The notes: generated by a model not told the origin, from the letters alone. A stretch of 64,000 nt of DNA from Candidatus Dormibacteria bacterium (GCA_050010655.1 JBEKKP010000003.1:6498-70497), one strand, 5' to 3'. Shown: positions 779-33,606, numbered from the stretch's first letter. Numbers and translations: made by a program.

Positions 779-2308
779 TCAGTGGCGGAAGTGCCGTTCT
801 CCTGCCAGGACCACGGCCATATCGAGGGCGTCGGCGGCCTGAGTGACCACGGGGTCGTTCTTGCTGCCGCCAGGATGGATGACCGATCGCACCCCGGCGT
901 TCCCAAGGGTCTCGAGGCCGTCCGGCATCGGGAAGAAGGCATCCGAGGCTGAGGCGGCGCCCCTTGCGCGATCCCCCGCGCGGGCGACGGCCAACTCAGA
1001 CGACTCGACCCGGGACATCTGACCAGCACCAACTCCCACCGCCATGCCGTCGCGGACGATGACCACGGCGTTGGACTTGACGTGCCGGACGACCCGCCAA
1101 GCGATCAGGAGGTCCCGCCACTCCGCGTCATCGGGCTGACGAACGCTCACCACATTCATCGCGGTGGGATCGGTGAGGACGCGGTCGCGGGTCTGGACGA
1201 GCAGTCCCCCATCGATGCTGCGCACGTCGAGCGGCTCGGACTGGGAAGGCCGATCGACGACGAGGACGCGAATCCGCTGCTTGGTGGCCAGGTGCGCGGC
1301 CGCCGCTTCGTCGATGCCGGGACAGACCACAGCTTCGAGGAACGTCTCGGTGAGCGCTTCGGCGGTGGCGAGATCGATGTGGCGGTTGATGCCGACGATC
1401 CCGCCGTACGCGGAGCGCGGGTCGCACTCGTATGCGCGGCGGTATGCGTCCACTGCGCTGTCGCCGACGGCGAAGCCGCAGGGGTTGGTGTGCTTGATGA
1501 CGCAGGCGGCCGGCTCTTCGAACTCGGCGACCAGTGCGCGAGCGGCATCGACGTCGAGCCAGTTGGTGAAGGAGAGCGCTGCGCCTTGCAGCTGGCGAGC
1601 GTGGGCCATGCCGCCGGGTGCCCCGGGAACCGAGTAGAGCGCGCCGCGCTGGTGCGGGTTCTCGCCGTAGCGGAGCTCGTGCAGCCGGCGCCCGCCAACG
1701 GTCAGCTCCTCGGGGAGGGTCGTTTCGGCCGAAGCACTTCGCAGCCACGCCGCGACCTGCGTGTCGTACGCGGCCACGTGGGCGAATGCCTCGGTGGCGA
1801 GGCGGTGGCGGGTCGCAATCGACACGGACCCGTGCTCACGCAATTCGCCGAGCACAGCTTCGTACTGCGATGGCGACACGACCACAGCGACCGAATCGCG
1901 ATTCTTCGCCGCGGCGCGGATGAGCGTGGGCCCGCCGATGTCGATGTTCTCGATGATCGTTTCCTCATCCGCCCCACTCGCCAGCGTGTCGGAGAAGGGG
2001 TACAGCGATGAGACCACGAGGTCGATCGGCTCGAAGCGGCTCTCGGCGAGCTGGCGCATGTGCTCGGGGTTGTCGCGCCGGGCGAGGATCCCCGCGTGAA
2101 TCGCGGGATGGAGCGTGCGAACGCGGCCGTCGAGCATCTCCGGGAAGCCGGTGATGTCGGCGACGGATTGCACCTCGACGCCGGCATCGATCAGCGCCCG
2201 GCTGGTGCTGCTCGTCGCCACGAGGTCGTACCCGTGTTCGACCAGGCCGCGCGCGAATTCGATCAGTCCAGTCTTGTCGCTCACGGACAGCAGTGCCCGC
2301 GTGGTCAT
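779..2308 (-). CDS. purH: bifunctional AICAR formyltransferase / IMP cyclohydrolase
   Basis: MTTRALLSVSDKTGLIEFARGLVEHGYDLVATSST...RVRTLHPAIHAGILARR is typical PurH (MGS-like N-domain plus AICARFT domain). The start at the internal Met overlaps the purN stop by 4 nt. The longer ORF upstream of that Met is rejected. Confidence 0.9.
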   Translation of the reverse strand: MTTRALLSVSDKTGLIEFARGLVEHGYDLVATSSTSRALIDAGVEVQSVADITGFPEMLDGRVRTLHPAIHAGILARRDNPEHMRQLAESRFEPIDLVVSSLYPFSDTLASGADEETIIENIDIGGPTLIRAAAKNRDSVAVVVSPSQYEAVLGELREHGSVSIATRHRLATEAFAHVAAYDTQVAAWLRSASAETTLPEELTVGGRRLHELRYGENPHQRGALYSVPGAPGGMAHARQLQGAALSFTNWLDVDAARALVAEFEEPAACVIKHTNPCGFAVGDSAVDAYRRAYECDPRSAYGGIVGINRHIDLATAEALTETFLEAVVCPGIDEAAAAHLATKQRIRVLVVDRPSQSEPLDVRSIDGGLLVQTRDRVLTDPTAMNVVSVRQPDDAEWRDLLIAWRVVRHVKSNAVVIVRDGMAVGVGAGQMSRVESSELAVARAGDRARGAASASDAFFPMPDGLETLGNAGVRSVIHPGGSKNDPVVTQAADALDMAVVLAGERHFRH

Positions 2309-2949
2309 ACCGGCGCCACCTCGGGTGCCGGTAGCACGCGGACTCGGTTGCCGACGCGCTGCAGCCGGTCGGTGCTCCAGAGCGCCACGGCCTGGGGGAG
2401 CAGTTCCCATTCGGCCTGGTGGATGCGCTGGCGGAGCGACGCCGCATCGTCGTCCATCTCGACGGGGACAGCCTTCTGAAGCACGATCGGTCCGCCGTCG
2501 GCCTCGCCACGCTCGAGCAACTGCACCGTGCACCCGGTCACACGAACGCCGCGCGCCAACGCTCGCTCGATTGCGTCCATGCCACCGGCAAAGGCCGGAA
2601 GCAGCGACGGATGCACATTGATGATTGCGTCGGGATACGCGTCGAGGAACTCGTCGCTCAGGATCCGATCGTAGCCGGCGCACACGACGAGACGGATACC
2701 GGCAGCCTGGAACCGCGCGCGGATCTCGCGGTCGCGGGCTTGCGGGTCACCGCCGAAATCCGCTTGCGGCAACGCCACAGCGGGCACACCCCAACCGAGG
2801 GCCACGTCAAGTGCGTGCGCGCTGCGCCGGTTCGAGACCACGAGCGCCACTCGAGCCGGAAATGCCGGGTCCCTGCACGCCTGCAGGAGCGCATCGAGGT
2901 TGGTCCCTGCTCCGGACACCAGCACGCCGACCTGGGTCCGTTCGCTCAC
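2305..2949 (-). CDS. purN: phosphoribosylglycinamide formyltransferase
   Basis: GVLVSGAGTNLDALL...VVCAGYDRIL...INVHPSLLPAFAG is the GART formyltransferase signature. It is translationally coupled to purM and purH. Confidence 0.85.
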   Translation of the reverse strand: MSERTQVGVLVSGAGTNLDALLQACRDPAFPARVALVVSNRRSAHALDVALGWGVPAVALPQADFGGDPQARDREIRARFQAAGIRLVVCAGYDRILSDEFLDAYPDAIINVHPSLLPAFAGGMDAIERALARGVRVTGCTVQLLERGEADGGPIVLQKAVPVEMDDDAASLRQRIHQAEWELLPQAVALWSTDRLQRVGNRVRVLPAPEVAPV

Positions 2950-3968
2950 TTCAGGATGACCCGCCGTGTGCCCGACTGGGGCACCACCTCACCGATGCGC
3001 CAGACCGGGATCCCCGCGGCTGAAGCGATTTCGGGAACGTCGGGCGGCACGATCACCACCATGCCCACGCCCATGTTGAAGGTGCGCCACATCTCCTCGA
3101 GATGCACGCCGCCTGCCTTCTGAATCGCGCCGAAGATCGCCGGAACGTCCCAGGTGGACCGCTCGATGGTTGCGGCAAGCCCCTCGGGAAGCACCCGCGG
3201 GACGTTGTCGATGACGCCACCGCCCGTGATGTGCGCCATCGCGCGGATGTCGGTCTGCGCGCGCACCTCGCGAATCGCGTGCAGGTAGCAGCGGTGCGGC
3301 TCGAGAAGGAGGTCGACGAGCGGCCGGTCGGTACCGGGAAGGACATCCGACCACTGCAGCTCGTGCTCGGCCACGATGTGGCGCACCAGCGAGTAGCCGT
3401 TGGTGTGCAGCCCGCTGCTCGGGAGTGCCAGCAGCACATCGCCCGCCTTCACCCGGCTGCCGTCGATGATCGCCGACGCCGTGACGGATCCGACGATGAA
3501 GCCGGCGATGTCGTAGTCGCCGAGTGCGTACACGCCCGGCATCTCGGCGGTCTCGCCGCCGATGAGCGCGCATCCGGCGGCGCGGCACGCCTCCGCGATC
3601 CCCTCGATGAGCTCGGCCAGCTGCTCCGGCACGAGCTTGCCGGTGGCGTAGTAGTCGAGAAAGAAGAGCGGGTCCGCGCCGCAGCAGAGGATGTCGTTGA
3701 CGCAGTGGTTGACCAGGTCCATGCCGATGCCGCGGTGACGTCCGGTGGCGATCGCGACCTTGACCTTGGTGCCGACGGAATCCGTGCTCGAGGCGAGCAC
3801 CCGCCCGTCGGGCGAGCCCGGCTCCAGCGCGAACAGCCCGCTGAAGGCTCCGATCCCGCCGAGGACCTGGCCGGTATGTGTGGATGCGATGGTGCGCCGG
3901 ATCAGGCTGACGGCACGGTTGCCCTCATCGATGTCGACACCGGCATCCGCGTAGCGAAGATCACCCAT
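2946..3968 (-). CDS. purM: phosphoribosylformylglycinamidine cyclo-ligase (AIR synthase)
   Basis: YADAGVDIDEGNRAV...GGIGAFSGLF...TDSVGTKVKVA...ALIGGETAEMPGVY is canonical PurM. Confidence 0.9.
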   Translation of the reverse strand: MGDLRYADAGVDIDEGNRAVSLIRRTIASTHTGQVLGGIGAFSGLFALEPGSPDGRVLASSTDSVGTKVKVAIATGRHRGIGMDLVNHCVNDILCCGADPLFFLDYYATGKLVPEQLAELIEGIAEACRAAGCALIGGETAEMPGVYALGDYDIAGFIVGSVTASAIIDGSRVKAGDVLLALPSSGLHTNGYSLVRHIVAEHELQWSDVLPGTDRPLVDLLLEPHRCYLHAIREVRAQTDIRAMAHITGGGVIDNVPRVLPEGLAATIERSTWDVPAIFGAIQKAGGVHLEEMWRTFNMGVGMVVIVPPDVPEIASAAGIPVWRIGEVVPQSGTRRVILK

Positions 3969-4091
3969 CTGGGAAGAGAGTGTATCGGCGGCTTCACACG
4001 GGACGCGGAATGGCGACGGGCATCGCAGGACGGCGTGGCGGTGTCACCATGTAGGCAACACGGTCCAAGTCCAGGAATCCTGCCCTAACTA

Positions 4092-5870
4092 GTGAATCCC
4101 ACCGACACGTCGGACCCGAATTATTTCCATCGGGTCGTCGATTGCCAGTGGGCCTGTCCGGCCCACACCAACGTCCCGGAGTACATCCGTCTGATCGCTC
4201 AGGGGCGGTACACGGACGCGTACATGTCCAACCGCGAATCCAACGTGTTCCCGGGGATTCTCGGGAGGACCTGCGATCGGCCGTGCGAGCCCGCGTGCCG
4301 GCGGACGAGGATCGACGGCGCGCCTGTCGCGATTTGCCGCCTCAAACGCGTCGCGTCCGATCTGCGCGGCGATATCGAGGATCGCCTCCCGGTGATTCCG
4401 ACGAACAAGAACGGGCGGCGGGTCGTCTGCGTCGGCGCCGGACCCGCGTCACTCACGGTCGCCAACGACCTCATGCCGCTCGGCTACGACGTGGTCATCC
4501 TCGAGCAGCACGAGACCGCGGGTGGCCTCATGCGGACCAACATCCCGGCGTTCCGCCTGCCTGCCGAGGTGCTCGACGAGGAGATCGCCACGATCGTCGA
4601 CATGGGCGTCGACCTCCGGCTCAACACGCCGGTCTCGAGCCTTCGGAGCCTGCTCGCGCAGGACTTCGATGCGGTGTTCATCGGCACCGGGGCGCCGCGA
4701 GGCAAGGATCTCGACATTCCCGGACGTCACGACAGCGACCGCATCCATATCGGCATCGACTGGCTCGAATCGGTCGCCTTCGGACACACCGAGAAGATCG
4801 GCGAGCGCGTGCTGATCATCGGCGTCGGCAACACGGCGATGGACTGCTGCCGCTCGTCGCTACGCCTCGGTGGCACCGCCATCAAGGTGATGGCGCGGCG
4901 TCCGCGCACCTTCTTCAAGGCTTCGTCATGGGAGCTCGAGGACGCGGAAGAGGAGGGTGTCGAAATCCTCGTCAACCACGCTCCGACCCGTTTCGTCATC
5001 GAGGACGGCAAGCTCGTCGGCATGGAGTTTCAGCGGCTCGAATGGGATGACCAGGCGCGCCGCTCGACGGTCATCGACAGCGTGGTGATCCCGTGCGACG
5101 ACGTCATCCTCGCCATCGGTCAGGAGAACGCCTTCCCCTGGATCGAGCGCGATCTCGGCCTCGAAGTCGGTGACTGGGACATGCCGGTGGTGGACCCCGT
5201 GACCTTCCAGTCCTCGCTCCCCGGTGTCTTCTTCGGCGGCGACTCGGCGATGGGCCCGAAGAACATCATCTGGGCGGTCGAGCACGGTCATCAGGCCGCT
5301 ATCTCGATTCACAACCATTGCGAAGGCATCGCGGTCACGTCCCGGCCGCCGCAAGGCGTCAACCTCGTGAGCCAGAAGATGGGGCTCACCGAGTGGAGCT
5401 ACAACAACGACTACAACCCGTCGAGCCGGCAGAAGATGCAACACGTCGAGCTGACGCACCGGTTCCAGAGCATCGGCACCGAGGTGGAGGTGGGGTTCTC
5501 CGCAGAGCAGACCGCGCGCGAGGTGCAGCGCTGTCTGAACTGCGACATTCAGACCGTCTTCGCTGCGCCGCTCTGCATCGAGTGCGATGCGTGCATCGAC
5601 ATCTGCCCGGTGCAGTGCCTGACCATCACCGAGAACGGTGACGAGGCCGACCTGCGCACGCGGTTGTCGGCTCCCGCGAAGAACCTCGACCAGGCGCTGT
5701 ATGTCTCCGCAGCACTGCCCCAGACGGGACGCGTGATGGTGAAAGACGAGGACCTCTGCGTGCATTGCGGCCTCTGCGCCGAGCGTTGCCCAACTGCCGC
5801 GTGGGACATGCAGAAATTCGAGCTCCTGCTCCCGCTTGCGCTCCTCACCCCGATTCCGGTGGCGACCTGA
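4092..5870 (+). CDS. glutamate-synthase beta-subunit-like NAD(P)H:FAD oxidoreductase fused to a C-terminal 2x[4Fe-4S] ferredoxin domain
   Basis: GTG start. N-terminal GltD-type Fe-S region (CPAHTNVPEYI...CDRPCEPAC), then a VCVGAGPASL dinucleotide fold and a second Rossmann motif GVGNTAMD. C-terminal CLNCD...CIECDACIDICP and CVHCGLCAERCP ferredoxin motifs. Stop lies 1 nt before korA. Confidence 0.75.
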   Translation: MNPTDTSDPNYFHRVVDCQWACPAHTNVPEYIRLIAQGRYTDAYMSNRESNVFPGILGRTCDRPCEPACRRTRIDGAPVAICRLKRVASDLRGDIEDRLPVIPTNKNGRRVVCVGAGPASLTVANDLMPLGYDVVILEQHETAGGLMRTNIPAFRLPAEVLDEEIATIVDMGVDLRLNTPVSSLRSLLAQDFDAVFIGTGAPRGKDLDIPGRHDSDRIHIGIDWLESVAFGHTEKIGERVLIIGVGNTAMDCCRSSLRLGGTAIKVMARRPRTFFKASSWELEDAEEEGVEILVNHAPTRFVIEDGKLVGMEFQRLEWDDQARRSTVIDSVVIPCDDVILAIGQENAFPWIERDLGLEVGDWDMPVVDPVTFQSSLPGVFFGGDSAMGPKNIIWAVEHGHQAAISIHNHCEGIAVTSRPPQGVNLVSQKMGLTEWSYNNDYNPSSRQKMQHVELTHRFQSIGTEVEVGFSAEQTAREVQRCLNCDIQTVFAAPLCIECDACIDICPVQCLTITENGDEADLRTRLSAPAKNLDQALYVSAALPQTGRVMVKDEDLCVHCGLCAERCPTAAWDMQKFELLLPLALLTPIPVAT

Positions 5871-5871
5871 C

Positions 5872-7689
5872 ATGGCGGCAGAGCATTTCGAGCAGACCCG
5901 CAGCAAGGTGAACGACTTCGCGCTGAAGCTCGCGAACGTCAACGGCACCGGCTCGTCGAGCGCGAACAACCTGCTGATGCGTTCGATCTTCCGGATGGGC
6001 GTGCCGGTGTCCGGCAAGAACCTCTTCCCTTCGAACATTCAGGGACTGCCCACCTGGTACGAGATCCGCGTGAACAAGGACGGCCACGTTTCCCGCGCCC
6101 GCGAGTACGACCTCATGGTGGCGATGAACGGGCAGACCTACGCGCGCGACATCGCCGAGGTGGCGGGCGGCGGATTCACGATGTACGACTCGTCATGGCC
6201 GCTCGACCGCGACCTGATCCGCGAGGACGTGACCTACCTCGGCGTGCCGCTCGCCGAGCTGTGCAACGACGAGTTTCGCGGTCCGCGCGAGCGCATTCTC
6301 ATGAAGAACATTGCGTGCGCGGGAGCGCTCGTCGCGATGCTCGGCATCGACATGGACGTGATCGCGCAACTGCTCACCGAGCAGTTCGCAGGCAAGGATC
6401 GACTCCGCGAGTCCAACCAGCGAGCGCTCCGTCTCGGCTACGACTTCGCGACGTCGCATTTCGACTATCCACTCCCGTGCCGGATCGAACCGATGAACGC
6501 GACTGCCGGTTCCATCCTCATCGACGGCAACACCGCGGCGGCACTTGGATGCGTGTACGCGGGCGCAACAGTTGCGGCCTGGTATCCGATCACACCGTCG
6601 ACGTCGCTGATGGACGCATTTGCCAAGTACTGCGCCAAATTCCGGCGCGATCCGGTGACCGGTCAGAACAACTACCTCGTGCTGCAGGCCGAGGATGAGC
6701 TTGCCGCAATCGGCATGGTGCTCGGCGCGTCGTGGGCCGGAGCACGTGCATTCACGTCGACATCGGGGCCAGGAATATCGCTCATGCAGGAACTGCTCGG
6801 CATGGGCTACTACGCGGAGATCCCAGCAGTGGTGTTCGACGTGCAGCGCGTCGGCCCGTCGACGGGGATGCCCACACGCGTGCAGCAGGCCGACATTCTG
6901 GCGTGCGCGTATGCGTCGCACGGCGATACCAAGCACATCCTGCTGTTCCCTTCGAGTCCGGCGGAGTGCTTCCAGATGGCACCTGTCGCCTTCGACCTCG
7001 CGGAGCGATTCCAGACACCGGTCTTCGTGCTGTCCGACCTCGACATCGGTATGAACGACTGGGTGAGCCCCGCACTCGAATGGGACGACTCGTATGTGCC
7101 CGATCGCGGCCGCGTCCTCGACGCAGGCGACCTGCGCGAGCTCGAGGTCTTCCACCGTTACGAGCCAGCCGATACGGAGTCGGTCGCGGCGCGCACCCTC
7201 CCCGGCGTGAGCGAGCTCGGCGCATATTTCACGCGCGGCTCGGGTCACACCATCGAAGGTGCGTATACCGAATATCCCGAGGAATACCAGGCCGTCCTCG
7301 ATCGCCTCGCGCGCAAGCACACGGCCGCTGCGGAGCACACCCCTGCGCCGCTCGTGGACCAGCGCGCACATTCCCCGCTCGCGATCGTGACCTTGGGCAG
7401 TTGCGAGCTCGCCGTCCTGGAGGCGATCGAGATCCTCGCAAAACAGGGGATCGCCGCCGATTACATGCGCATCCGTGGCTTTCCATTCGGCGCCGGCGTG
7501 CGCGCGTTCCTCGATGATCACGAGACGCTCGTTGTCGTCGAGCAGAACCGCGATGCCCAGTTGCGCACTCTGCTCACCCTCGAGACACCCGTTCCGAAGG
7601 AGAAGCTGCGGTCCGTTCTGGCGTACGGGGGCTACCCGCTCAGTGCAGACGATGTCGTCGACGGCGTCGTCAAAATCGTGGGGGCCTGA
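5872..7689 (+). CDS. korA: 2-oxoglutarate:ferredoxin oxidoreductase alpha subunit (gamma-alpha fusion)
   Basis: KorA/PorA-like sequence throughout (SGKNLFPSNIQGLPTWYEIR..., GCVYAGATVAAWYPITPSTS..., QAEDELAAIGMVLGAS). The ATG at 5872 lies 1 nt after the upstream stop. Confidence 0.85.
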   Translation: MAAEHFEQTRSKVNDFALKLANVNGTGSSSANNLLMRSIFRMGVPVSGKNLFPSNIQGLPTWYEIRVNKDGHVSRAREYDLMVAMNGQTYARDIAEVAGGGFTMYDSSWPLDRDLIREDVTYLGVPLAELCNDEFRGPRERILMKNIACAGALVAMLGIDMDVIAQLLTEQFAGKDRLRESNQRALRLGYDFATSHFDYPLPCRIEPMNATAGSILIDGNTAAALGCVYAGATVAAWYPITPSTSLMDAFAKYCAKFRRDPVTGQNNYLVLQAEDELAAIGMVLGASWAGARAFTSTSGPGISLMQELLGMGYYAEIPAVVFDVQRVGPSTGMPTRVQQADILACAYASHGDTKHILLFPSSPAECFQMAPVAFDLAERFQTPVFVLSDLDIGMNDWVSPALEWDDSYVPDRGRVLDAGDLRELEVFHRYEPADTESVAARTLPGVSELGAYFTRGSGHTIEGAYTEYPEEYQAVLDRLARKHTAAAEHTPAPLVDQRAHSPLAIVTLGSCELAVLEAIEILAKQGIAADYMRIRGFPFGAGVRAFLDDHETLVVVEQNRDAQLRTLLTLETPVPKEKLRSVLAYGGYPLSADDVVDGVVKIVGA

Positions 7690-7691
7690 CC

Positions 7692-8741
7692 ATGCCATCC
7701 ATCGTCAAACCCGTGGTGACGCATCCCGGACTCGAACGCAACGCGCTCGGTTTGACGATTCGTGACTACGAGGGCGGCATGTCGACGTTGTGCGCCGGCT
7801 GCGGCCATGACTCGGTCACCGCCGCAATCACGCACGCCCTCTGGGAGAGCGACACGCCACCGCACATGATCGCCAAGTTGAGCGGCATCGGCTGCTCCGC
7901 CAAGACCGCCGCGTACTTCGCTCGCGGCGCGCATGGGTTCAACGGCTGTCACGGCCGCATGCCACCGATCGCCACCGGAGCGAGCGCCGCCAACCGCGAC
8001 CTGCTGTGCATCGGCATCTCCGGTGACGGCGATTCGTTGTCGATCGGCCTCGGCCACCTCGCGCACCTGGTGAGGCGCAACGTGCGCATGGTCTATGTCA
8101 TCGAGAACAACGGCGTGTACGGGCTGACCAAGGGCCAGTTCTCCGCGTCGGCAGATATCGGTTCCACCACCAAGCGCGGCGAGGCCAATCATCTGCAGCC
8201 CATCGATCCGATCATGCTCGGGCTCTCGATTGGCGCGACATTCCTCGCACGTGGATTCTCGGGCGACAAGCGCCAGTTGGTGCCGATCTTCCGCGCGGCA
8301 ATGGCCCATCGCGGGCTCGCGATCATCGACGTCATCTCGCCGTGCGTCACGTTCAACGACCACGAGGGCTCGACCAAGAGCTATCTCTTCACGCGTCAGC
8401 ACGACGTGCAGATGACGGTCACCGATTTCGTGCCACCGGCTGAAGAGATCTCGGCAACGATCCCCGCCGAAGGCGTGGTCAGCATTCCGATGCACGACGG
8501 CGCGACGTTGCGCTTCCGCAGTGTCCCGGACGGCTACGACCCCACAGACCGGATGGCCGTCATGGAGCACCTGATGGCGTCGCGCGGCCGCGGAGAGATC
8601 GTGACCGGGCTCCTGTACATCGACGAGCAGTCATCCGATCTGCACGAGCTCGGCAACACCACCGCGACACCGCTGACGCAGGTGCCGTACGAGCAGCTCA
8701 CCCCGGGTTCGGCGGCGCTCGCAGGTATCGGCTTCCGCTGA
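7692..8741 (+). CDS. korB: 2-oxoglutarate:ferredoxin oxidoreductase beta subunit (TPP-binding)
   Basis: TPP-binding beta subunit motifs CAGCGHDSV...GIGCS...GDGDSLSIGLGHLAHLVRRNV...IENNGVYGLTKGQ. Start is 2 nt after the korA stop. Confidence 0.85.
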   Translation: MPSIVKPVVTHPGLERNALGLTIRDYEGGMSTLCAGCGHDSVTAAITHALWESDTPPHMIAKLSGIGCSAKTAAYFARGAHGFNGCHGRMPPIATGASAANRDLLCIGISGDGDSLSIGLGHLAHLVRRNVRMVYVIENNGVYGLTKGQFSASADIGSTTKRGEANHLQPIDPIMLGLSIGATFLARGFSGDKRQLVPIFRAAMAHRGLAIIDVISPCVTFNDHEGSTKSYLFTRQHDVQMTVTDFVPPAEEISATIPAEGVVSIPMHDGATLRFRSVPDGYDPTDRMAVMEHLMASRGRGEIVTGLLYIDEQSSDLHELGNTTATPLTQVPYEQLTPGSAALAGIGFR

Positions 8742-8766: not shown

Positions 8767-9990
8767 TTACGCAGGGAGCGCGTTGCGTGCTTGCATCAAG
8801 AACGTCCGCTCGACGGCGTTGGAAGTGAGCTCGACGGCGAGGACGTACTCGGCACGCGCGTCATCGTTGCGGCCGACCCTGCTCAGCAGATCGGCCCTCA
8901 CGGCGTGGAACAAGTAGTACTCGCCGAAGTCGAGACGGTCCACTGCGTCCAGCGCCACTGAGGCGCCGCGCACCTCCGCGAGGGCGACCGCACGGTTGAG
9001 CGCAACGACGGGCGTCGGGTTCAGCGCGAGCAACTGGTCGTACAGCTGGAGGATCTGTCCCCACTCGGTGTCGGCTGCGCGCGCAGCATCGCTGTGGACC
9101 GCACTGATCGCGGCCTGGATCTGATACGGACCAGGCTGATTGCGCCGCAGGCACTCGCGGACGATCTGCTGGCCCTCTTCGATGAGCGAGCGATCCCACA
9201 TCGAACGATCCTGATCGTCGAGGAGCACGAGATCTCCGCTCGCCGATGTCCGGCTGCGCTGGCGCGAGTGGACGAGCAGCATGAGCGCGAGCAGGCCGAG
9301 CACCTCGGGCTCGTCCGGCATGAGCTCGGTGAGGATCCGGCCAAGGCGGATCGCCTCGACGCACAGGTCTGCGCGATCAAGGCGCTCGCCGGAGCTCGCC
9401 ACGTACCCCTCGTTGAAGATCAGATAGACCACCGTGAGCACCGCGCTGAGCCGGGCTGCAAGTTCCGTCGATGCCGGCACGCGATACGGGATTCCGGCGT
9501 CCCGAATCTTGTGCTTGGCTCGCACGATGCGCTGCGCCATGGTCGCCTCGGGGACGATGAATGCACGCGCGATTTCCGTGGTCGAGAGACCACCCAGCAA
9601 CCGCAGTGTCAGCGCGATCTGTACCTCCGTGGCGAGTGCGGGATGGCAGCAGGTGAAGATCAGCCGGAGGCGCTCGTCGCGCACTGGTCCGTCGTCGATC
9701 GGGTTGCGTTCCGCCTGCATCAGCGCGGCCTTGGCGTAGCGATCAGCTCGCGCGGCGTCACCGCGAAGACGATCAATTGCACGGCGCCTTGCCGTGGTGA
9801 TGATCCAGCCCGCCGGGCTGGGAGGCAGTCCCGTCTCCGGCCACCGCTGCACCGCAACGGTGAACGCTTCCTGGACTGCCTCCTCAGCGATGTCGATGTC
9901 CCCGAACGATCGGACGAGCACGGCCACGGCACGCCCGAACTCCTCGCGGAACACACGCTCGATCTCCGAATCACTCACCCGCGGCATGTC
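8767..9990 (-). CDS. ECF-type sigma-70 factor with a long C-terminal extension
   Basis: Sigma-70 region 2 and region 4 ([15 protein letters not shown]...; [36 protein letters not shown]) followed by an extension of about 230 aa. The start at the internal Met [13 protein letters not shown] lies immediately after the upstream YciI-like gene. Confidence 0.75.
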
Positions 9991-9995
9991 TGGAA

Positions 9996-10355
9996 TCAGG
10001 CGTCCGGCGGCGCATCCTGGAACGGCCGGACCTCGATCGGAGCGACACACGCGACAGTCGCCTTGCGCGCCCACGCGAGCGCGGCGTCGAGGTCCTCCGC
10101 CTGAATGATCCAGAAGCCGCCGATGCGCTCCTTGGCCTCTGCGTACGGGCCGTCGGTGGTGACCACAGCGCCGTCCCTGACGCTCACCACCGATGCCGTG
10201 CTGTCGTTGTGCAAGCCGCCGGCGAAGATCCAGGCGCCCGCCGCCATCAGCTCCGCGTTGATCACATCGACGTCGCGGATACTCTTGGCCATCACCTCGG
10301 GCGCCAACGCTGGGCCCTTGTCTGCGTGATAGACGCTGAGCATGTACTGCTTCAT
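9996..10355 (-). CDS. YciI-like (YCII-related) domain protein
   Basis: [14 protein letters not shown]...[21 protein letters not shown] has the Dabb/YciI fold signature. It pairs with the downstream ECF sigma factor as a typical operon. Confidence 0.7.
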
Positions 10356-10499
10356 CGGGGTTCCTCCTTGGCACGAGCCCTTTGGCGAGATCGTGCCGTC
10401 TGCTTCTGGTGGCCGGTCATCCGGCCCGTCACCTCCTATACGGAACTCATGACCGGAAATCGACACGCCAAGGATGAGCAAATCGTTCCTCGAGCCGGA

Positions 10500-14619: not shown

Positions 14620-16098
14620 TCAGGACGAGACGGCGACGGGAATCTCCAGCGCGAGCTTGTCCATCTCGAGCTGCGCCGGGACGTCCACCGGGTACGAGCC
14701 GGTGAAACACGCAAAACAGAAGCCGTTGCCATCGGGTTGCCCCATCGCGCGGCGCAGGCCCGCGAGGCTGAGATAGCGAAGCGAATCCGCTCCGAGCATC
14801 GCGCCGATCTCACGCTCGGTGTGGCCCGCGGCGATGAGCTCACGTCGCGACGCGATGTCGATGCCCATGAAACATGGCCATGCAATCGGCGGGGACGCGA
14901 TACGCATGTGCACCTCGCTCGCTCCCGCGCGGCGCAGTTCATCGATGATGCGACGCGATGTCGTGCCGCGCACGATCGAGTCGTCCACGAGCACCACGCG
15001 GCGGCCCTCGAGCACGTGGCGCATCGGATTGAACTTCAAGCGGATGCCCGCCTCGCGCAAACGCTGTGTCGGCTGGATGAACGTGCGCGTGATGTAGCGC
15101 GACTTGATCATCCCTTCCGCGAATGGCAATCCCGCCTGTTCGGCGTAGCCGATCGCCGCGGGCGTGCCGCTATCCGGCAGCGTGATGACGATGTCTCCGT
15201 CAGCCGGCGCCTCACGCGCGAGCTCGCGACCCATGTGGCGCCGCGACTCGTACAGGGACTTGCCCATCATCACGCTGTCGGGCCTCGCGAAGTAGATGAA
15301 CTCGAATGAACACATCGCGCGGTGCGCGGCGGTGCGCTGAATCTTGGTGCTGCGCATTCCGGATGCATCGACGGTCACGATTTCTCCGGGCTCGATCTCG
15401 CAGATGAACGTCGCACCGACGACATCGAGCGCGCAGGTTTCGCTGGCCATCACATAGCCGGTGCCGCCGGGTGCATCGATATCGCCGAAGCGGCCGAGGC
15501 ACAACGGGCGGATACCGAGCGGATCGCGCGCGGCGACGAGTGAGTCCTTGGTGAGGAACACGAGGCAGTACGCGCCCTCGACACGCGGCAGCGCCTCCGC
15601 GAGCGCCTGCTCCAGCGTGTCGGCCTCGGTCTGCGCGATCAGCGCACCGAGCACCTCGGTGTCACTCGTGGTCTCGAAATCGAAGCCCTTGGTGATGAGC
15701 TCATCGCGCAACTTGGTGGCGTTGACGAGGTTGCCGTTGTGTGCGATCACGACCGGGCCGATCGTAGGGTGCTCGACCGAGATGGGCTGCGCGTTGAGCA
15801 GCCGCGCGCTGCCGGTGGTGCTGTAGCGCGTGTGGCCTATTGCGATGTTGCCGCGGAGCCCGTCGATCGTCTCCTGGTCGAACACCTGGGACACGAGGCC
15901 CATTTCCTTGCAGATGCGAATTTCGCGACCGTCGCTGACCGCAATGCCCGCGGATTCCTGTCCGCGATGCTGCAACGAGTACAGGCCGAAATACGTCAGG
16001 TTGGCGACGTCCTCGCCCGGGTGGAACACCCCGAAGACGCCGCATTCCTCATGGAGATGGTCGTCGTCGATGGCGTTCAATCCGGCCTGATCACTCAC
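14620..16098 (-). CDS. purF: amidophosphoribosyltransferase
   Basis: N-terminal propeptide followed by CGVFGV (Ntn nucleophile), the PRTase motif [13 protein letters not shown] and C-terminal Fe-S cysteines. Confidence 0.9.
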
Positions 16099-18313
16099 GC
16101 TCGATCAACGCTCCTTCGTGTACCGCTCGCACGTCGGCGAGTGACACGTCGAGACATCCGGTCACGCAGACCCTCTCGCCCCCGACGGAGCCGAGACCGC
16201 GGAAGGGGACCGAGTGCCGCCCTGCCAGCTCGTGCAATCGCACAAGTGCCTCCCTGGCGAAGCTGATGACAAAACGAGATTGACTCTCACCGAAGAGTAT
16301 ACCGGCCGACCCGTTAATCAACCCTTCGCCGGTTTCGATCTCGTCGATCGCGATATTCGCGCCTATGTCGCCCAGCAGACATGACTCCGCAAGCGCGATC
16401 GCGATACCCCCCTCCGCGCAGTCATGCGCAGAGTGCAGGAGGCCCTCGGCGACCGCCTCGATGACGAAGGCCTGTACGCGACGCTCGAGCGCCAGGTCGA
16501 GGTGCGGCGGCGAGCCGGCGCTGACCCCGTGGGCGATTCGCTGGTACTCGCTGCCGTCGAGTTCGGACGCAACGGGGCCGACCAGCGCCACCACATCGCC
16601 CTCGTCCTGAAATCCCGCAGTGCAGCGCCGCGCCACGTCATCGATGACACCAACCATCCCGATGACGACCGTCGGATCGATCCCGGTGCCGCCGGTGTCG
16701 TTGTACAGGCTCACGTTGCCGCTCACCACTGGAATATCGAGTGCGATGCACGCCTCGCTGATGCCCTGGATCGCGTCGTGCAGGTCCCACCACACGTCGG
16801 CGTGCTCGGGATTGGCGAAATTCAGGCAATTCGTGATCGCCGCCGGCTGCGCACCGGTCGCGACGACATTTCGGGCCGCCTCGCAGACGGCGATCATCGC
16901 CCCCTGCCTCGCGTCCAGCGCGGTGTACCGCGAGTTGCCGTCGGTCGCAAGGGCGATGCCGAGGTGCGTGCCCTCGACGCGCACGAGCGCGGCATCGCCA
17001 CCGGGAAGGATCACCGTGGCGTCGCCGACCTGGTGGTCGTACCGGCGATACACGGAGGACCGGCTTCCCAGGTTCGGACTCCCCAGCAGCGCCAGCAGCG
17101 CCTCGCCCGCGGACCATTCCGGCGCCGTCCGCTCGGCTGCCGCCGGCGTCTTACGGTGGTCCGGACGGGGTCCCGGCGCCGTGCGCGGCGGTGCGCCGTC
17201 GACGAGCAGATCGAGCGGCAGATCGCATACCTGCTCGGCACCGTCACGAACCACAAAACGCTCGTCCGGGAGGATGACCGCGACGACGTCCGAATGCAGA
17301 TCCCAGCGTTCGAAGACCTCCTGCAGCGAGTGCACGTCCTCGGGCTTCGCAACGATCAACATGCGCTCCTGCGACTCACTCAGCATCACCTCATACGGCG
17401 TCATGCCCGTCTCACGACGCGAGGCGCGCGCGACGTCGACGTCGATGCCGCAATGACCTCGATGCGCAAGCTCCGCCGTGCTCCCGCAGAGACCCGCAGC
17501 GCCGAGGTCCTGCATCGCGATCACGCGTGGATCGCCGGCCAGCTCGAGACACGCCTCCATGAGGCACTTCTCGAGAAATGGATTGCCGACCTGCACGGCG
17601 GGACGTCGCGCGTTGCTGTCTGCGTCGAGAACCACCGACGCGAAACTGGCGCCGTGAATGCCATCACGACCGGTGTCGGCGCCGACGAGCAGGACAAGGT
17701 TGCCGGGACCGCTCGCGGTCGCGAGAGTCAGCTTGCCCTGCTCGACGATGCCCACGCACATCGCATTGACGAGACAGTTGGTCCGGTACGACTCGTCGAA
17801 ATACAGCTCCCCACCGACAGTTGGTACTCCGATGCAGTTGCCGTATCCACCGACACCGGCGACAACGCCGTCGAAGAGATGGCGTTGATGGGGCTCGTTG
17901 AGCGGACCGAAGCGCAGGGAGTCGAGCAGCGCGACCGGGCGTGCTCCCATCGTGAAGATGTCACGCAGAATCCCGCCGACACCGGTGGCAGCTCCCTGGT
18001 ACGGCTCGATCGCGCTCGGATGGTTGTGCGACTCGATCTTGAACACGCATGCGAGACCTTCGCCGATATCCACCGCACCGGCGTTCTCGCCCGGGCCTTG
18101 CAACACGCGCGGACCTTTAGTCGGCAGCGTGCCGAGCAGCGGCTTGCTCGTCTTGTAGCTGCAGTGCTCGCTCCACAGCGCGCCGACGATGCCGAGCTCG
18201 AGCCGGTTCGGCTCGCGTCCGAGAGCGTCGACAAGGTGCGCATACTCGCTGCGAGTGAGCGCCACCTCCGCGAGGTCCGCATCACTCGCCGCCGCGTATT
18301 GCATGGTGGTCAC
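16091..18313 (-). CDS. purL: phosphoribosylformylglycinamidine synthase subunit II
   Basis: 740 aa containing duplicated AIRS/AIRS_C modules ([17 protein letters not shown]...). Overlaps purQ by 4 nt and purF by 8 nt. Confidence 0.9.
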
Positions 18314-19029
18314 GACGCCGCAGCGACCGGCATCGCACCAGTGCGACTGACTGAGTTTGCGACGTTTTCAAACAGTCGCATCCCATCCGACGACCCGAGC
18401 ATCGGCTCACACGCACGCTCCGGGTGCGGCATCATCCCGAGCACATTGCGTCGCTCGCTGACGATCCCCGCAATATCGCGCATCGATCCATTCGGCGACT
18501 CATCACCAACAGGCGATCCGTCCCGTCGAACATAGCGAAACGCGACCCGCTGCTCACGTTCGAGCATGTCGAGCGTCGCTTCATCTGCAACAAACCGTCC
18601 CTCTCCATGCGACACCGGAACCTGGAGCACGTCACCCACCGCACATCCCGAGGTCACAGCGCTATCGGCGGTCTCAACGCGCAACCACGTTGGCACGCAA
18701 CGAAACTCCAGCGAACTGTTCCGCGTCAGCGCTCCCGGCAACAAATGCGCCTCACAGAGAATCTGAAACCCATTGCAGATTCCCCATACCAACCCACCGG
18801 CATTTGCAAACTCGGACACGGACTCCATCAAGGGCGCGAACCGCGCAACCGCTCCCGCTCGCAAGTAGTCGCCATACGCAAACCCACCCGGGAGGATCAC
18901 GCAATCCGCACCCTGCAGATCCCGATCCTTGTGCCACAGCATCACCGCCCCGTGCCCCGCGAGTTCGACCGCGTGCTTGCAATCTCTGTCCGACCACGTC
19001 CCTGGGAACACGGCTATTCCGAATCTCAT
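18310..19029 (-). CDS. purQ: phosphoribosylformylglycinamidine synthase subunit I (glutaminase)
   Basis: [11 protein letters not shown]...[17 protein letters not shown]...GICNGFQIL...HPE has the type-1 glutamine amidotransferase triad. Confidence 0.9.
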
Positions 19030-19049
19030 CAGGACCCCCTGCGCCGCAA

Positions 19050-19175
19050 GGTGGGGAGGGCATGGACTGCGCTGGGCACGGGGTCGGAACGCCTTTGCCG
19101 TTCCGCCCCTCGCTCTCGCCGGGGGGGGTAGCCCCGGCTCCGAGACGGCCCCGCTCCGTTCATGCCCTCCCCACC
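19050..19175. repeat. 126-bp structured element bounded by a perfect 15-bp inverted repeat (GGTGGGGAGGGCATG ... CATGCCCTCCCCACC), possibly a MITE/REP-like insertion or a cis-RNA
   Basis: Perfect 15-bp arms at 19050-19064 and 19161-19175, seen directly in the sequence. The interior holds two further GC-rich hairpins (GGAACG/CGTTCC and GCCGGGG/CCCCGGC). The right arm is the last codons of the purS ORF. Confidence 0.5.
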
Positions 19176-19177
19176 AC

Positions 19178-19447
19178 TCACAGCCCAGTACCCGATAGCG
19201 CTCTTATCGATCCGATGTGGGAGTCCTCGATCACGGTGTTGCGCAAGAGTTGCTCGCACATCGCTTCGACTTGCGCTCGCACCGACGCCTCGTCGTCACC
19301 CTCGACCTCGAGCTCCAAATATTTCCCGACGCGCACCGATCGCACCTCCGGAAATCCGAGCCGGTGAAGTCCGTCGCGTACCACGAGGCCCTGAGGGTCG
19401 TTGACCACGGGCTTCAACACGACGACGACTTCGACCGCGAAGGTCAT
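19178..19447 (-). CDS. purS: phosphoribosylformylglycinamidine synthase subunit PurS (with an apparent 11-aa C-terminal extension)
   Basis: MTFAVEVVVVLKPVVNDPQGLVVRDGLHRLGF...VGKYLELEVEGDDEASVRAQVEAMCEQLL is typical PurS. The ATG start overlaps the purC stop (ATGA). The tail GSIRALSGTGL is read from the inverted-repeat element. Confidence 0.8.
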   Translation of the reverse strand: MTFAVEVVVVLKPVVNDPQGLVVRDGLHRLGFPEVRSVRVGKYLELEVEGDDEASVRAQVEAMCEQLLRNTVIEDSHIGSIRALSGTGL

Positions 19448-20340
19448 TCGGCATTCACCCCTGCGATCTCGATTCCGCAGATGCGACGAGCGGCTTCTAT
19501 GTAGCGCTGGGTGGTACCGCGAACGACGTCTTCGGGAAGCTCCGGTCCGGGATATGTCTTGCCCCAGCCCAATGTCTCCGTGTAGTCGCGCACGAACTGC
19601 TTGTCGAAGGAGACTGCGGGTTCGCCTTCGCGCCATTGGGACATCTCCCAGAAGCGCGAGGAATCCGGAGTGAAGATTTCGTCGATGAGCGTCAGTTTCC
19701 CGTTGATGAAACCGAACTCGAACTTGGTGTCGGCGAGGTAGATGCCCTGAGCCTGGCAGCGTGCCGTTGCGAAGTCGAACAAGCGTAGCGACGCAGACTC
19801 CAACTCATCCGCGAGCGACTGGCCGAGGAGTGTGCGGAGCTCCTGACGCGAGATGTTGATGTCGTGGCCGTCGTCCTTCTTGATTGCCGGCGTGAAGCGC
19901 GGCGACGGGAGTCGCGAGGAGTCGCGCAGACCTTCCTGCAGCGGCTCGCCTGCGAGCGTTCCCTTCTCGCGATATTCCTTCCATCCGGATCCGCTGATGA
20001 ATCCGCGGACGACACACTCCACGTCGATCCGCTGCGCGCGAGCTACGTGCATCGAACGCGGTAGCCAGTCCTCGCGGACCGATTCCGGAATTGCCTCCTC
20101 GTCGTCGGCGAGCAGGTGATTCGGCATGATCGCCTGCGTCTGCGCGAACCACCAGCGCGACATCTGTGTGAGCACTGTGCCCTTCCCCGGAATCGGCGTC
20201 GGGAGCACGACATCGAACACGCTCAAGCGGTCGGTTGCGATCATCAAAAGGGTTCCGTCGGCCAGCTGAAACGTGTCCCGCACCTTGCCGCGCCGGAACA
20301 GGTTCAGGTCACCGATCTCCGCGCTGCTCATCACCTGCAT
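19444..20340 (-). CDS. purC: phosphoribosylaminoimidazole-succinocarboxamide synthase
   Basis: GKVRDTF...LLMIATDRLSVFDVVLP...YLADTKFEFG is the SAICAR synthetase signature. Confidence 0.9.
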   Translation of the reverse strand: MQVMSSAEIGDLNLFRRGKVRDTFQLADGTLLMIATDRLSVFDVVLPTPIPGKGTVLTQMSRWWFAQTQAIMPNHLLADDEEAIPESVREDWLPRSMHVARAQRIDVECVVRGFISGSGWKEYREKGTLAGEPLQEGLRDSSRLPSPRFTPAIKKDDGHDINISRQELRTLLGQSLADELESASLRLFDFATARCQAQGIYLADTKFEFGFINGKLTLIDEIFTPDSSRFWEMSQWREGEPAVSFDKQFVRDYTETLGWGKTYPGPELPEDVVRGTTQRYIEAARRICGIEIAGVNAE

Positions 20341-21719
20341 CAGCTCATCCTCCCACCGGCCAGGCCGGCCTCAATTGCAAGCACCGGCGCCGAAGCGTTG
20401 TGGGGTGCTCGTTCTGCTGTTGTCGTCGAAAGACCAAGACGTCGGTAGGTCACGTCGATATTCGCCAGATACGGTTCGACGTCGAAACACTGTGCGATCG
20501 TCGCTTCGGACAGAGCACTTGAGATGTCCGCGTCGACCGAGACGAGGTCGCGAAACGAACCCTCGTCGTCACGGGCACGAGCGGTGAGCGCCTGCACTGC
20601 CCGATATGCGCGCTCGCGGGGCCATTCGGCTTCGACAATCAGCGCGGTGAGCACTTGTTGCGAGAACACGATGCCGCCGTGCAACTCGATGTTCGCTGCC
20701 ATGTTCTCTGACTTGACGCGCAGCCCTTCGACGATCCGTGTGGAAAGCCGCACGATGTAATCGCTCAATGCGCAGGCGTCGGGCAGGATCACACGCTCCG
20801 CGGACGAGTGCGAGATGTCGCGCTCATGCCAGAGAGCGACGTCTTCCATTGCAGTCATCGCGTAGCCGCGGAGGACGCGGGCGAGCCCGCAGATGCGCTC
20901 GCAGAGAATCGGATTCCGCTTGTGGGGCATGGACGATGAGCCCTTCTGGCGCTGCCCGAACGGCTCCTCGGCTTCGTCGACTTCGGTGATCTGGAGCAGC
21001 CGGATCGTCGTCGCGAGACGCTCGAGAACGGCGCCGAGCAACGCAAGCGCGGTGAGGAACGACGCATGACGATCACGCGCGATTACCTGCGTTGCGACAG
21101 GAGCGGTCGCCAGTTTGAGGTGCGCGCACACGTGCTCCTCAACCTCCGGCGGAACACTCGCATGCGTGCCGATTGTCCCGGTGATCTTCCCGACAGCGAT
21201 CTCCACAGTCGCCGCCGCGAGCCGTTCGCGTGCGCGACGCACCTCATCGAGGTGATTCGCGAGCTTTATGCCGAGGGTCAGCGGTTCCGCGTGAACGCCG
21301 TGGGTGCGACCCATCATCACCGTGAGCCGGTGGCGCTCCGCCTGCTCGATCAACGCCCCGACCAGGGATTCGACATCGGCATCGATCACCGCTGCAGCGT
21401 CGCGGAGCTGCGTGGACAGGGCCGTGTCGACCACGTCAGACGAGGTCAGGCCGAGGTGGAAATACCGGCCGGCGTCACCGATTGTCTCCTGGATGGCGGA
21501 GACGAATGCCGCGATGTCGTGCCCTTGCTCAGCCTCGAGCTCAGCAATGCGCTCGGCATCGATCGTTGCTCTCTGGAGGACCGAAAGGGCCTCGACCGGA
21601 ATCCGGCCGACCTCCGCCCAACCCTCACACGCGAGCAACTCGACATCCAGCCAGCGTTGCAGCCGCGAGGTGTCACTGAAGATCTTCGCGATCTGCTGCG
21701 GGGCGTACCGGGGGATCAC
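20340..21719 (-). CDS. purB: adenylosuccinate lyase
   Basis: Fumarate-lyase family sequence (GLTSSDVVDTAL, GRTHGVHAEP, SSSMPHKRNP). The start codon is GTG at 21719. Confidence 0.9.
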   Translation of the reverse strand: MIPRYAPQQIAKIFSDTSRLQRWLDVELLACEGWAEVGRIPVEALSVLQRATIDAERIAELEAEQGHDIAAFVSAIQETIGDAGRYFHLGLTSSDVVDTALSTQLRDAAAVIDADVESLVGALIEQAERHRLTVMMGRTHGVHAEPLTLGIKLANHLDEVRRARERLAAATVEIAVGKITGTIGTHASVPPEVEEHVCAHLKLATAPVATQVIARDRHASFLTALALLGAVLERLATTIRLLQITEVDEAEEPFGQRQKGSSSMPHKRNPILCERICGLARVLRGYAMTAMEDVALWHERDISHSSAERVILPDACALSDYIVRLSTRIVEGLRVKSENMAANIELHGGIVFSQQVLTALIVEAEWPRERAYRAVQALTARARDDEGSFRDLVSVDADISSALSEATIAQCFDVEPYLANIDVTYRRLGLSTTTAERAPHNASAPVLAIEAGLAGGRMS

Positions 21720-27672: not shown

Positions 27673-27677
27673 GGCGC

Positions 27678-33589: not shown

Positions 33590-33606
33590 TTTCCTCCCAC
33601 CGCTCC

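Follow-up and report, generated by a model that had tools for sequence, protein, structure and literature searches.

The DNA analysed in this study, referred to below as the window, is a stretch of 64,000 nucleotides from Candidatus Dormibacteria bacterium (GCA_050010655.1 JBEKKP010000003.1:6498-70497). Three consecutive genes on its + strand, at positions 4092-8741, encode a flavoprotein and the KorA and KorB subunits of a 2-oxoacid oxidoreductase, and it is probable that they form one operon for a three-subunit 2-oxoglutarate:NADP+ oxidoreductase (KGOR) of the Aromatoleum evansii type. Judged by gene content, gene order, coupling, cofactor sites and full-length homology, the trio belongs to the KGOR family of the A. 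evansii type; a stable complex with 2-oxoglutarate as the substrate and NADP+ as the acceptor would be expected from this kinship. A first-pass annotation, made by a model from the sequence, had drawn attention to the trio; the system matches the KGOR already known from A. evansii, and the corresponding genes of A. aromaticum EbN1 already carry this name. The cassette is a real and ordinary member of a known but rarely cited enzyme type and not a new system. What is new is a second KGOR clade that is widespread in soil lineages, the description of a permuted Fe-S domain and of four predicted cluster sites, the wide distribution of the cassette and the poor state of its annotation.

The flavoprotein gene (4092-5870, + strand) runs from a GTG start at 4092 to a TGA stop at 5868-5870 and encodes 592 amino acids (65.2 kDa). 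A longer N-terminus is excluded by an in-frame TAA at 4086-4088, and the GTG is preceded, at a distance of about 14 nt, by the Shine-Dalgarno-like motif AGGAA. A single base (c, 5871) separates the flavoprotein stop from the ATG of korA (5872-7689, + strand; start ATG 5872, stop TGA 7687-7689), which encodes 605 amino acids (65.9 kDa), and two bases (cc) lie between the korA stop and the ATG at 7692 of korB (7692-8741, + strand; 349 amino acids, 37.0 kDa). The coordinates given earlier, and the placing of korA 1 nt after the flavoprotein stop and of korB 2 nt after korA, are exact. The G+C content of the window is about 66%. In the protein collection, the 592-residue product is identical to NCBI MGD0193349.1 from a Candidatus Dormibacteria metagenome-assembled genome (MAG), and the closest genome loci among the matches listed are Dormibacterota MAGs, with 91-93% identity to the flavoprotein. 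KorC is used here as our own label for the flavoprotein and is distinct from the korC of KEGG; existing subunit naming is inconsistent, the protein being the 'gamma subunit' in the EbN1 annotation but 'KGOR-alpha' in the literature (PMC10134865).

The link to the Aromatoleum enzyme rests on gene order and on full-length similarity. A tblastn search of plasmids retrieved this trio of genes, each stop overlapping the next start, from plasmid 2 of A. aromaticum EbN1, where the products (CAI10532-4) were named by their depositors as the gamma, alpha and beta subunits of '2-ketoglutarate: NADP oxidoreductase'; homologues in Azoarcus sp. CIB and on the EbN1 chromosome bear the same name. Full-length identities between the window and EbN1 proteins are 56.5% (CAI10532), 53.4% (CAI10533) and 52.3% (CAI10534). 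In A. evansii itself (CP141259.1, locus 3354244-3372022), a 592-residue protein with Fer4_20, Pyr_redox_2 and Fer4_7 domains is followed, after a 1-nt gap, by a 618-residue POR/POR_N protein and, with a 4-nt overlap, by a 351-residue thiamine diphosphate (TPP) protein. The three-subunit enzyme was reportedly purified from Azoarcus/Aromatoleum evansii by Ebenau-Jehle, Boll and Fuchs in 2003. Its subunits are said to measure 63, 62 and 37 kDa, in agreement with the 65.2, 65.9 and 37.0 kDa predicted for the window proteins, and to occur in a 1:1:1 ratio together with FAD, TPP and Fe-S centres, and the enzyme reportedly was highly specific for 2-oxoglutarate, reduced NADP+ and not NAD+, and delivered its electrons to ferredoxin or NADP+. 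The window flavoprotein and A. evansii P0204 share 57% identity over 589 amino acids. Extracts from two later papers cite the 2003 study (J Bacteriol 185:6119) by title (PMC10134865, PMC8163825), and in one of these extracts the 'KGOR-alpha' of that study is placed in the GltD/NfnB family tree (PMC10134865).

KorA carries the Pfam domains POR (amino acids 25-191) and POR_N (amino acids 226-390), which correspond to domain III fused to domains I-II. It passes the NCBIfam model TIGR03710, '2-oxoacid:acceptor oxidoreductase subunit alpha' (535 bits against a cutoff of 482.75), and contains the substrate/TPP motif YPITP (AWYPITPST). Its best solved relative is the 2-oxoglutarate:ferredoxin oxidoreductase (OGOR) of Magnetococcus (6n2n_A, E 1e-58). 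KorB carries TPP_enzyme_C (amino acids 65-214) with the thiamine diphosphate motif GDGD…NN and scores 203 bits with TIGR02177 PorB_KorB, short of the cutoff of 261.9. Cysteines 34, 37, 68 and 218 of KorB are shared with the EbN1 KorB and are enough for a single [4Fe-4S] cluster. The closest structures to KorB are StOFOR1 (E 3e-42) and, a close second, Magnetococcus 6n2n (E 7e-42). In alignment, KorB Lys71 lies opposite K49b of the StOFOR1 beta subunit (5b48_B), the mutation of which abolished 2-oxoglutarate activity and left pyruvate activity in place (PMC5020499). Another StOFOR1 residue that is needed there for 2-oxoglutarate, D468a, corresponds to Ser457 in KorA; this position is uninformative on the substrate, because it is occupied by Leu in the 2-oxoglutarate-specific Magnetococcus enzyme. 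No Fer4 domain was found by Pfam in KorA or KorB. In the solved two-subunit 2-oxoacid:ferredoxin oxidoreductases (OFORs), the absence of domain V leaves a pocket beside the single cluster, and ferredoxin docks there (PMC5020499).

The flavoprotein joins a GltD-like FAD/NAD(P)H module to a C-terminal 2x[4Fe-4S] ferredoxin, as the first-pass annotation had described. Pfam recognizes the first part of a GltD/NfnB-type Fe-S domain (Fer4_20, amino acids 17-91, E 5e-15; 4140-4364, + strand) with cysteines 18, 22, 61, 65, 69 and 82, followed by the FAD and NAD(P)H Rossmann modules (Pyr_redox_2, amino acids 110-399, E 7e-24; 4419-5288, + strand) and, at the C-terminus, the dicluster ferredoxin domain (Fer4_7, amino acids 495-570, E 2e-10, with Fer4 matching as well; 5574-5801, + strand). 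The top NCBIfam model is PRK12771, 'NAD(P)-binding protein', at 387 bits against a cutoff of 516. In a PDB sequence search the nearest solved relatives are the NfnB-like modules 9bov_A, 9n5u_A, 5jca_L and 8oh5_C, with GltD and DPD next; no structure of a KGOR was among the matches. HMMER aligns amino acids 17-409 with residues 51-469 of the NfnI large subunit (NfnI-L), and a separate segment, amino acids 459-487 (5466-5552, + strand), which ends in R-C481-L-N-C484 (…EVQRC481LNC484), with NfnI-L residues 21-48 (…EAERCLQC). These alignments show a circular permutation of the Fe-S domain with respect to GltD/NfnB, in which the first CxxC has come to lie behind the flavin module. The Fer4_20 profile is matched only from position 31 of 113 onward because this CxxC segment has been relocated. 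The same permuted order is found in 9bov_A, 9n5u_A and 8oh5_C (StnC).

Two dinucleotide-binding motifs are present, GAGPAS (amino acids 114-119) and GVGNTAMDCC (amino acids 244-253, with GVGNTA at 244-249), and the second Rossmann beta-strand is followed by the loop A-R269-R-P-R272. The equivalent loop in the NADPH-binding NfnI large subunit 5jca_L is YRRTR. From the resemblance of this Arg-rich loop (269-272) to YRRTR, NADP(H) is the best cofactor prediction for the clade to which the window belongs. The ferredoxin domain contains the motifs C495-x2-C498-x2-C501-x3-C505-P and C556-x2-C559-x2-C562-x3-C566-P, separated by an unusually long spacer of about 50 residues (amino acids 506-555; 5607-5756) with a conservation of 0.70-0.89, which may be the docking surface for KorAB. 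By ligand count the flavoprotein has four predicted cluster sites: C18, C22, C61, C65, C69 and C82 together with C481 and C484 would make two clusters, and C495/498/501/505 and C556/559/562/566 would make two more. All 16 predicted cluster cysteines are invariant in 81 locus sequences and in a 72-sequence alignment that spans both clades of the family; C252, C253, C509 and R269 are likewise invariant. Invariant Cys509 accompanies the ferredoxin-domain spacer, and the invariant Cys252-Cys253 pair lies in the NADPH module.

The distribution of the cassette was surveyed in a scan of one genome per GTDB species, which returned at least 591 loci with a relative of the flavoprotein; the best 80 were examined. 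The korA gene lies directly 3' of the flavoprotein gene in 77 of these 80, and korB follows wherever the contig continues. At one further locus (L004) the first 51 korA codons stand at the contig end, and at another (L068) the contig ends 58 nt past the flavoprotein gene. The order flavoprotein-korA-korB is kept in 78 of the 79 assessable loci, all from other species, and the arrangement is far beyond chance. The conservation of synteny in relatives, named earlier as a check, was borne out by these counts; the tight flavoprotein-korAB coupling and the idea that the flavoprotein links the 2-oxoacid oxidoreductase to NADP(H) are likewise supported. The sole assessable locus without korAB is L028 (Bryobacteraceae contig DATBIA010000025.1, 232-2022), whose flavoprotein has 74% identity and whose downstream open reading frames (ORFs) are unrelated; a stand-alone copy or a misassembly is possible there. 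The best 80 loci come from Dormibacterota, Acidimicrobiia and other Actinomycetota, Bryobacteraceae/Terriglobia (Acidobacteriota), Gemmatimonadota, Myxococcota, Binatia and Gammaproteobacteria (Steroidobacteraceae, Woeseia and others). When all ORFs of 110 or more amino acids in the 80 loci were clustered all against all, only the three genes were common to the loci, and the other large clusters were shadow ORFs overlapping them. No further conserved neighbour (regulator, ferredoxin, NfnA-like or tricarboxylic acid (TCA) cycle gene) was found, no other gene occurring in more than 8 of the 80 loci; the cassette is therefore a self-contained module. The purM/purH context is common only to the nearest Dormibacterota relatives. 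Assignment to an NfnAB transhydrogenase was considered and rejected, as no NfnA (FAD/[2Fe-2S]) gene lies beside the cassette and korA and korB are its only conserved neighbours.

An alignment of 99 flavoprotein homologues separates two clades. The window clade (86 sequences, mean identity to the window 73%) spans several phyla and carries the loop ARR/KPRxFFKAS; its members are 70-80% identical across Dormibacterota, Actinomycetota, Acidobacteriota, Gemmatimonadota and Gammaproteobacteria. The Rhodocyclales clade, with A. evansii, EbN1 and Azoarcus CIB, is 57% identical to the window and carries VRSGFEEMKAS. The first loop Arg is the sole loop residue that is invariant across both, and cofactor preference could differ between the clades. 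The window flavoprotein is nearer to Acidimicrobiia and Bryobacteraceae homologues (77-79%) than to that of the Dormibacterota MAG at L061 (70%), and it is this greater closeness that suggests horizontal transfer of the cassette among soil phyla. Across loci L001-L080 the flavoprotein is better conserved (69-93%) than KorA and KorB (56-96%, mostly about 60-70%).

Several irregular relatives were also seen. In a Wenzhouxiangella MAG (L055, 8001-10377) the flavoprotein match extends over 2377 nt, compared with about 1770 usually, and the main alignment begins at 8641, a pattern that points to an insertion or to duplication of a 5' fragment. Distant homologues (30-32% identity, 546-556 amino acids, annotated 'NAD(P)-binding protein') lie directly 5' of nifJ on a Phenylobacterium zucineum plasmid (L085; NC_011143.1, 145914-152203) and, in the same order, on a Methylovirgula sp. 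HY1 plasmid (L086; NZ_CP073765.1, 14525-20851). Here nifJ encodes a single-chain pyruvate:ferredoxin oxidoreductase (PFOR) and is followed by a 'dihydroorotate dehydrogenase-like protein'; the two loci may represent a parallel NAD(P)-coupled PFOR system. One 90%-identity protein cluster (cluster 4) mixes 592-residue flavoproteins with 605-residue KorA sequences. This is probably a clustering artefact, and gene calls fused across the 1-nt gap are a speculative cause.

The reaction can be pictured as follows. KorA and KorB would bind thiamine diphosphate and CoA and convert 2-oxoglutarate to succinyl-CoA and CO2, and the two electrons would leave singly by way of KorB's one [4Fe-4S] cluster. Domain V, which is missing from KorAB, would be replaced by the C-terminal 2x[4Fe-4S] domain of the flavoprotein; since KorA and KorB have no ferredoxin domain, placement of this C-terminal domain in the OFOR pocket is the simplest arrangement. 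From there the electrons would reach FAD by way of the permuted GltD/NfnB-type Fe-S domain and its two clusters and go on to NADP+, an order that is predicted from the domain and ligand content. The net reaction would be 2-oxoglutarate + CoA + NADP+ -> succinyl-CoA + CO2 + NADPH, and with NADP as the partner it would be practically irreversible. A free ferredoxin pool, to which the first-pass annotation had tied NAD(P)H, would not be required, with the ferredoxin domain built into the flavoprotein and KorAB devoid of one of its own.

The same annotation had allowed both directions, reductive 2-oxoglutarate synthesis or oxidation with NADP reduction. The energetics separate the two. Carboxylation by OGOR costs +9.5 kJ/mol with a ferredoxin of -440 mV and +1.8 kJ/mol with one of -480 mV, and the physiological NADP+/NADPH potential is -380 mV (PMC13147460). 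When the value of +9.5 kJ/mol is increased by 2F x 0.06 V or 2F x 0.12 V, NADPH-driven carboxylation comes to about +21 kJ/mol at -380 mV and about +33 kJ/mol at the E0' of -320 mV. Organisms with a reductive TCA cycle require ferredoxins of -440 to -485 mV (PMC10052474). Carboxylation being uphill and no bifurcation subunit being conserved beside the cassette, the enzyme should therefore run oxidatively and make NADPH. The oxidative, NADP+-reducing half of the earlier proposal is well supported by homology, and the synthase half is thermodynamically implausible. The physiological role would probably be to yield NADPH at a TCA-cycle step of an aerobic soil bacterium.

Four other explanations were weighed against an operon for a three-subunit 2-oxoglutarate:NADP+ oxidoreductase. 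It is unlikely that the three genes specify no fixed complex, with KorAB reducing free ferredoxin or flavodoxin and the co-transcribed flavoprotein acting as a separate ferredoxin:NADP+ oxidoreductase, or that a complex supplies mainly reduced ferredoxin, with NADP+ as an overflow acceptor. Stand-alone GltD/NfnB-like proteins that reduce ferredoxin do exist, for example AadN of Rhodopseudomonas palustris (PMC9973337), and L028 has the flavoprotein gene without korAB. The reported use of ferredoxin as one acceptor of the A. evansii enzyme also speaks for this reading. The adjacency in 78 of 79 loci, with gaps or overlaps of 1-4 nt that suggest coupled translation and equal stoichiometry, argues against separate enzymes, as does the reported isolation of the A. 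evansii enzyme as a 1:1:1 complex, and a soluble carrier is unnecessary given the built-in dicluster domain. The same architecture acting on another substrate, as an NADP-linked pyruvate, branched-chain or broad-specificity 2-oxoacid oxidoreductase, appears decidedly unlikely. KorA matches only the subfamily-level model TIGR03710, whose members include the broad-specificity Sulfolobus enzymes; D468a is not conserved; and the distant flavoprotein homologues on two plasmids are paired with nifJ (PFOR). Against this stand the Magnetococcus 2-oxoglutarate enzyme 6n2n, the top structure for KorA and a close second for KorB, and KorB Lys71 at the position of K49b, a residue that StOFOR1 needs to turn over 2-oxoglutarate (PMC5020499). 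The reported high specificity of the orthologous A. evansii enzyme for 2-oxoglutarate tells against another substrate as well.

An NADPH-driven 2-oxoglutarate synthase, in which the flavoprotein feeds NADPH electrons to KorAB and succinyl-CoA is reductively carboxylated, is very improbable. The cost of about +21 kJ/mol (NADPH at -380 mV) or about +33 kJ/mol (-320 mV) counts against it, as does the want of any NfnA-like or HydB-like high-potential partner conserved beside the cassette; in its favour, OFORs are in principle reversible and homology links the flavoprotein to the bifurcating NfnB/StnC module. The window also contains genes for a pyruvate carboxylase of two subunits and for a glutamate dehydrogenase, but 17-26 kb off and on the opposite strand. 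The cassette-bearing lineages, moreover, are mainly aerobic heterotrophs, many of them from soil, which likewise speaks against a synthase. There is next to no probability that the first gene is a glutamate synthase small subunit or an NADP-dependent formate dehydrogenase beta subunit that merely stands beside korAB. Automatic names such as 'NADPH-dependent glutamate synthase beta subunit-like' and 'formate dehydrogenase beta subunit', the latter given by JGI to many homologues, point that way. The protein, however, scores only 159 bits with TIGR01317 (cutoff 447.7) and 211 bits with TIGR01318 (cutoff 483), its Fe-S domain is permuted, with a CxxC at amino acids 459-487, and its synteny with korAB is near-universal. 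Neither gltB nor a gene for a formate dehydrogenase catalytic subunit was found among the window ORFs scanned, and neither is conserved near the 80 loci; a true GltD with a GltB partner, the case named earlier as the one that would overturn the proposal, is contradicted by the scores, by the permutation and by the lack of gltB among the ORFs scanned.

Some observations nevertheless weigh against the assignment to a three-subunit 2-oxoglutarate:NADP+ oxidoreductase. The characterized enzyme sits in the other, Rhodocyclales clade and is only 57% identical to the window protein, and the loop expected at the NADPH 2'-phosphate differs, A-R-R/K-P-R in the window compared with V-R-S-G-F in A. evansii. 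Substrate specificity is unreadable from the sequence, and the D468a position is uninformative. Both the flavoprotein and KorB fall under the cutoffs of their nearest curated NCBIfam models. The ferredoxin domain matches the PorD/KorD/VorD models at E 1e-6 to 5e-5, and NuoI and RnfB match equally or better, so the OFOR delta subunits are no nearer to this domain than NuoI or RnfB are. An AlphaFold2 model from the 72-sequence alignment reached a mean pLDDT (predicted local distance difference test) of 68.7, with 80-93 in the flavin core and below 50 in every Fe-S region, and the proposed electron path accordingly has no structural backing from this model.

The operon is flanked by the divergent purM (2946-3968, - strand) and, beyond korB, by a convergent extracytoplasmic-function (ECF) sigma gene (8767-10374, - strand). 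The intergenic region between purM and the cassette (3969-4091, + strand) presumably holds the promoter and the 5' untranslated region. No sigma-70-like promoter was found on the + strand around the operon, the lone consensus match lying on the - strand inside the flavoprotein gene; Rfam gave no family matches around the operon, and scans there for promoters, terminators and inverted repeats gave nothing above chance. The window is largely a dispersed purine-biosynthesis region (purH, purM, purF, purL, purC, purB, purE, purD, guaA and an IMPDH-like gene). Its purine/guanine genes occupy 779-3968, 14620-21719 and 30220-34767 and are broken by unrelated blocks, and the korAB cassette sits in one of these; between purM and purF lie the cassette, the ECF sigma/YCII pair, a TetR regulator, an ABC exporter and a pyridoxal phosphate enzyme. 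The ECF-type sigma gene, with a C-terminal DUF6596, and the YCII-domain gene (8767-10481, - strand) overlap or abut, are convergent with korB and are conserved only in the nearest Dormibacterota relatives (L002 and L003). The glutamate dehydrogenase and two-subunit carboxylase described as nearby do exist, the two-subunit pyruvate carboxylase at 26215-29471 (- strand; 17.5 kb from korB) and the glutamate dehydrogenase at 34888-36144 (- strand; 26 kb from korB), but they do not share the operon. More than ten genes, mostly for purine biosynthesis, lie between them and the cassette, and a functional unit of korAB with these two genes was rejected on distance and strand.

Although this enzyme type has been known since 2003, it is almost invisible in current annotation. 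Homologues are named FAD-dependent oxidoreductase, formate dehydrogenase (NADP+) beta subunit, glutamate synthase beta subunit-like, NAD-dependent dihydropyrimidine dehydrogenase PreT or NADPH-Fe(3+) oxidoreductase subunit beta, and among the public homologue annotations examined the KGOR name appears only in the EbN1 and CIB records. For the window itself the gain is modest, in that three genes of an uncultured Dormibacteria bacterium can now be named correctly by function. Recognition of the cassette improves the reading of korAB in at least 591 species-level genomes, many of them from aerobic soil lineages; in cassette-bearing genomes korAB probably marks NADPH-yielding 2-oxoglutarate oxidation and not CO2 fixation. 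More tentatively, and with considerable doubt, many aerobic soil bacteria might rely on the window clade, a distinct lineage, for the principal oxidation of 2-oxoglutarate in their TCA cycle, a step that would tolerate oxygen and produce NADPH and could stand in for the lipoamide 2-oxoglutarate dehydrogenase complex. If this were true, the number of korA/korB genes in a soil metagenome would for the most part reflect oxidative NADPH supply, and not reductive-TCA fixation or 'anaerobic-type' metabolism.

Among known systems, the catalytic subunits belong to the type of the two-subunit KorAB/OGOR enzymes of Magnetococcus marinus (6n2n), Hydrogenobacter thermophilus, Thauera aromatica, M. tuberculosis (Rv2454c/55c) and Sulfolobus tokodaii (StOFORs). 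These share with the window proteins the fused domains III-I-II in KorA and a domain VI with a single [4Fe-4S] cluster in KorB (PMC5020499), as well as the YPITP and GDG…NN motifs and the lack of an internal ferredoxin domain. They pass their electrons to free ferredoxin, and the M. tuberculosis KorAB reduces neither NAD+ nor NADP+ (PMC2773412). The window operon instead encodes a dedicated flavoprotein, with four predicted cluster sites, FAD and an NADPH site. This flavoprotein shares its FAD/NADPH fold and two-cluster Fe-S domain with NfnB/NfnI-L, GltD, the N-terminal module of DPD, StnC, 9bov_A and 9n5u_A (E 1e-52 to 1e-77). Unlike these relatives, it has a C-terminal dicluster ferredoxin domain attached, and its partner is a TPP enzyme in place of an NfnA, GltB, HydABC-like or molybdopterin subunit; nothing in the window system suggests electron bifurcation. 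The same functional logic, a 2-oxoacid oxidoreductase wired to NADP+ through an attached flavoprotein, is met in the pyruvate:NADP+ oxidoreductase of Euglena and Cryptosporidium, where the flavoprotein is a P450-reductase-type FMN/FAD domain on a single-chain PFOR and is unrelated to the GltD-like subunit. The closest counterpart is the A. evansii-type KGOR. It differs from the window system in its clade (Rhodocyclales), in its loop (VRSGF compared with ARR/KPR), in its host, an anaerobic degrader of aromatic compounds and not a Dormibacteria soil bacterium, and in its surroundings, the window cassette lying between purine-biosynthesis genes. In gene order, domain content, subunit sizes, the 1-nt gap between the flavoprotein gene and korA and the conserved Fe-S ligands, the two are alike.

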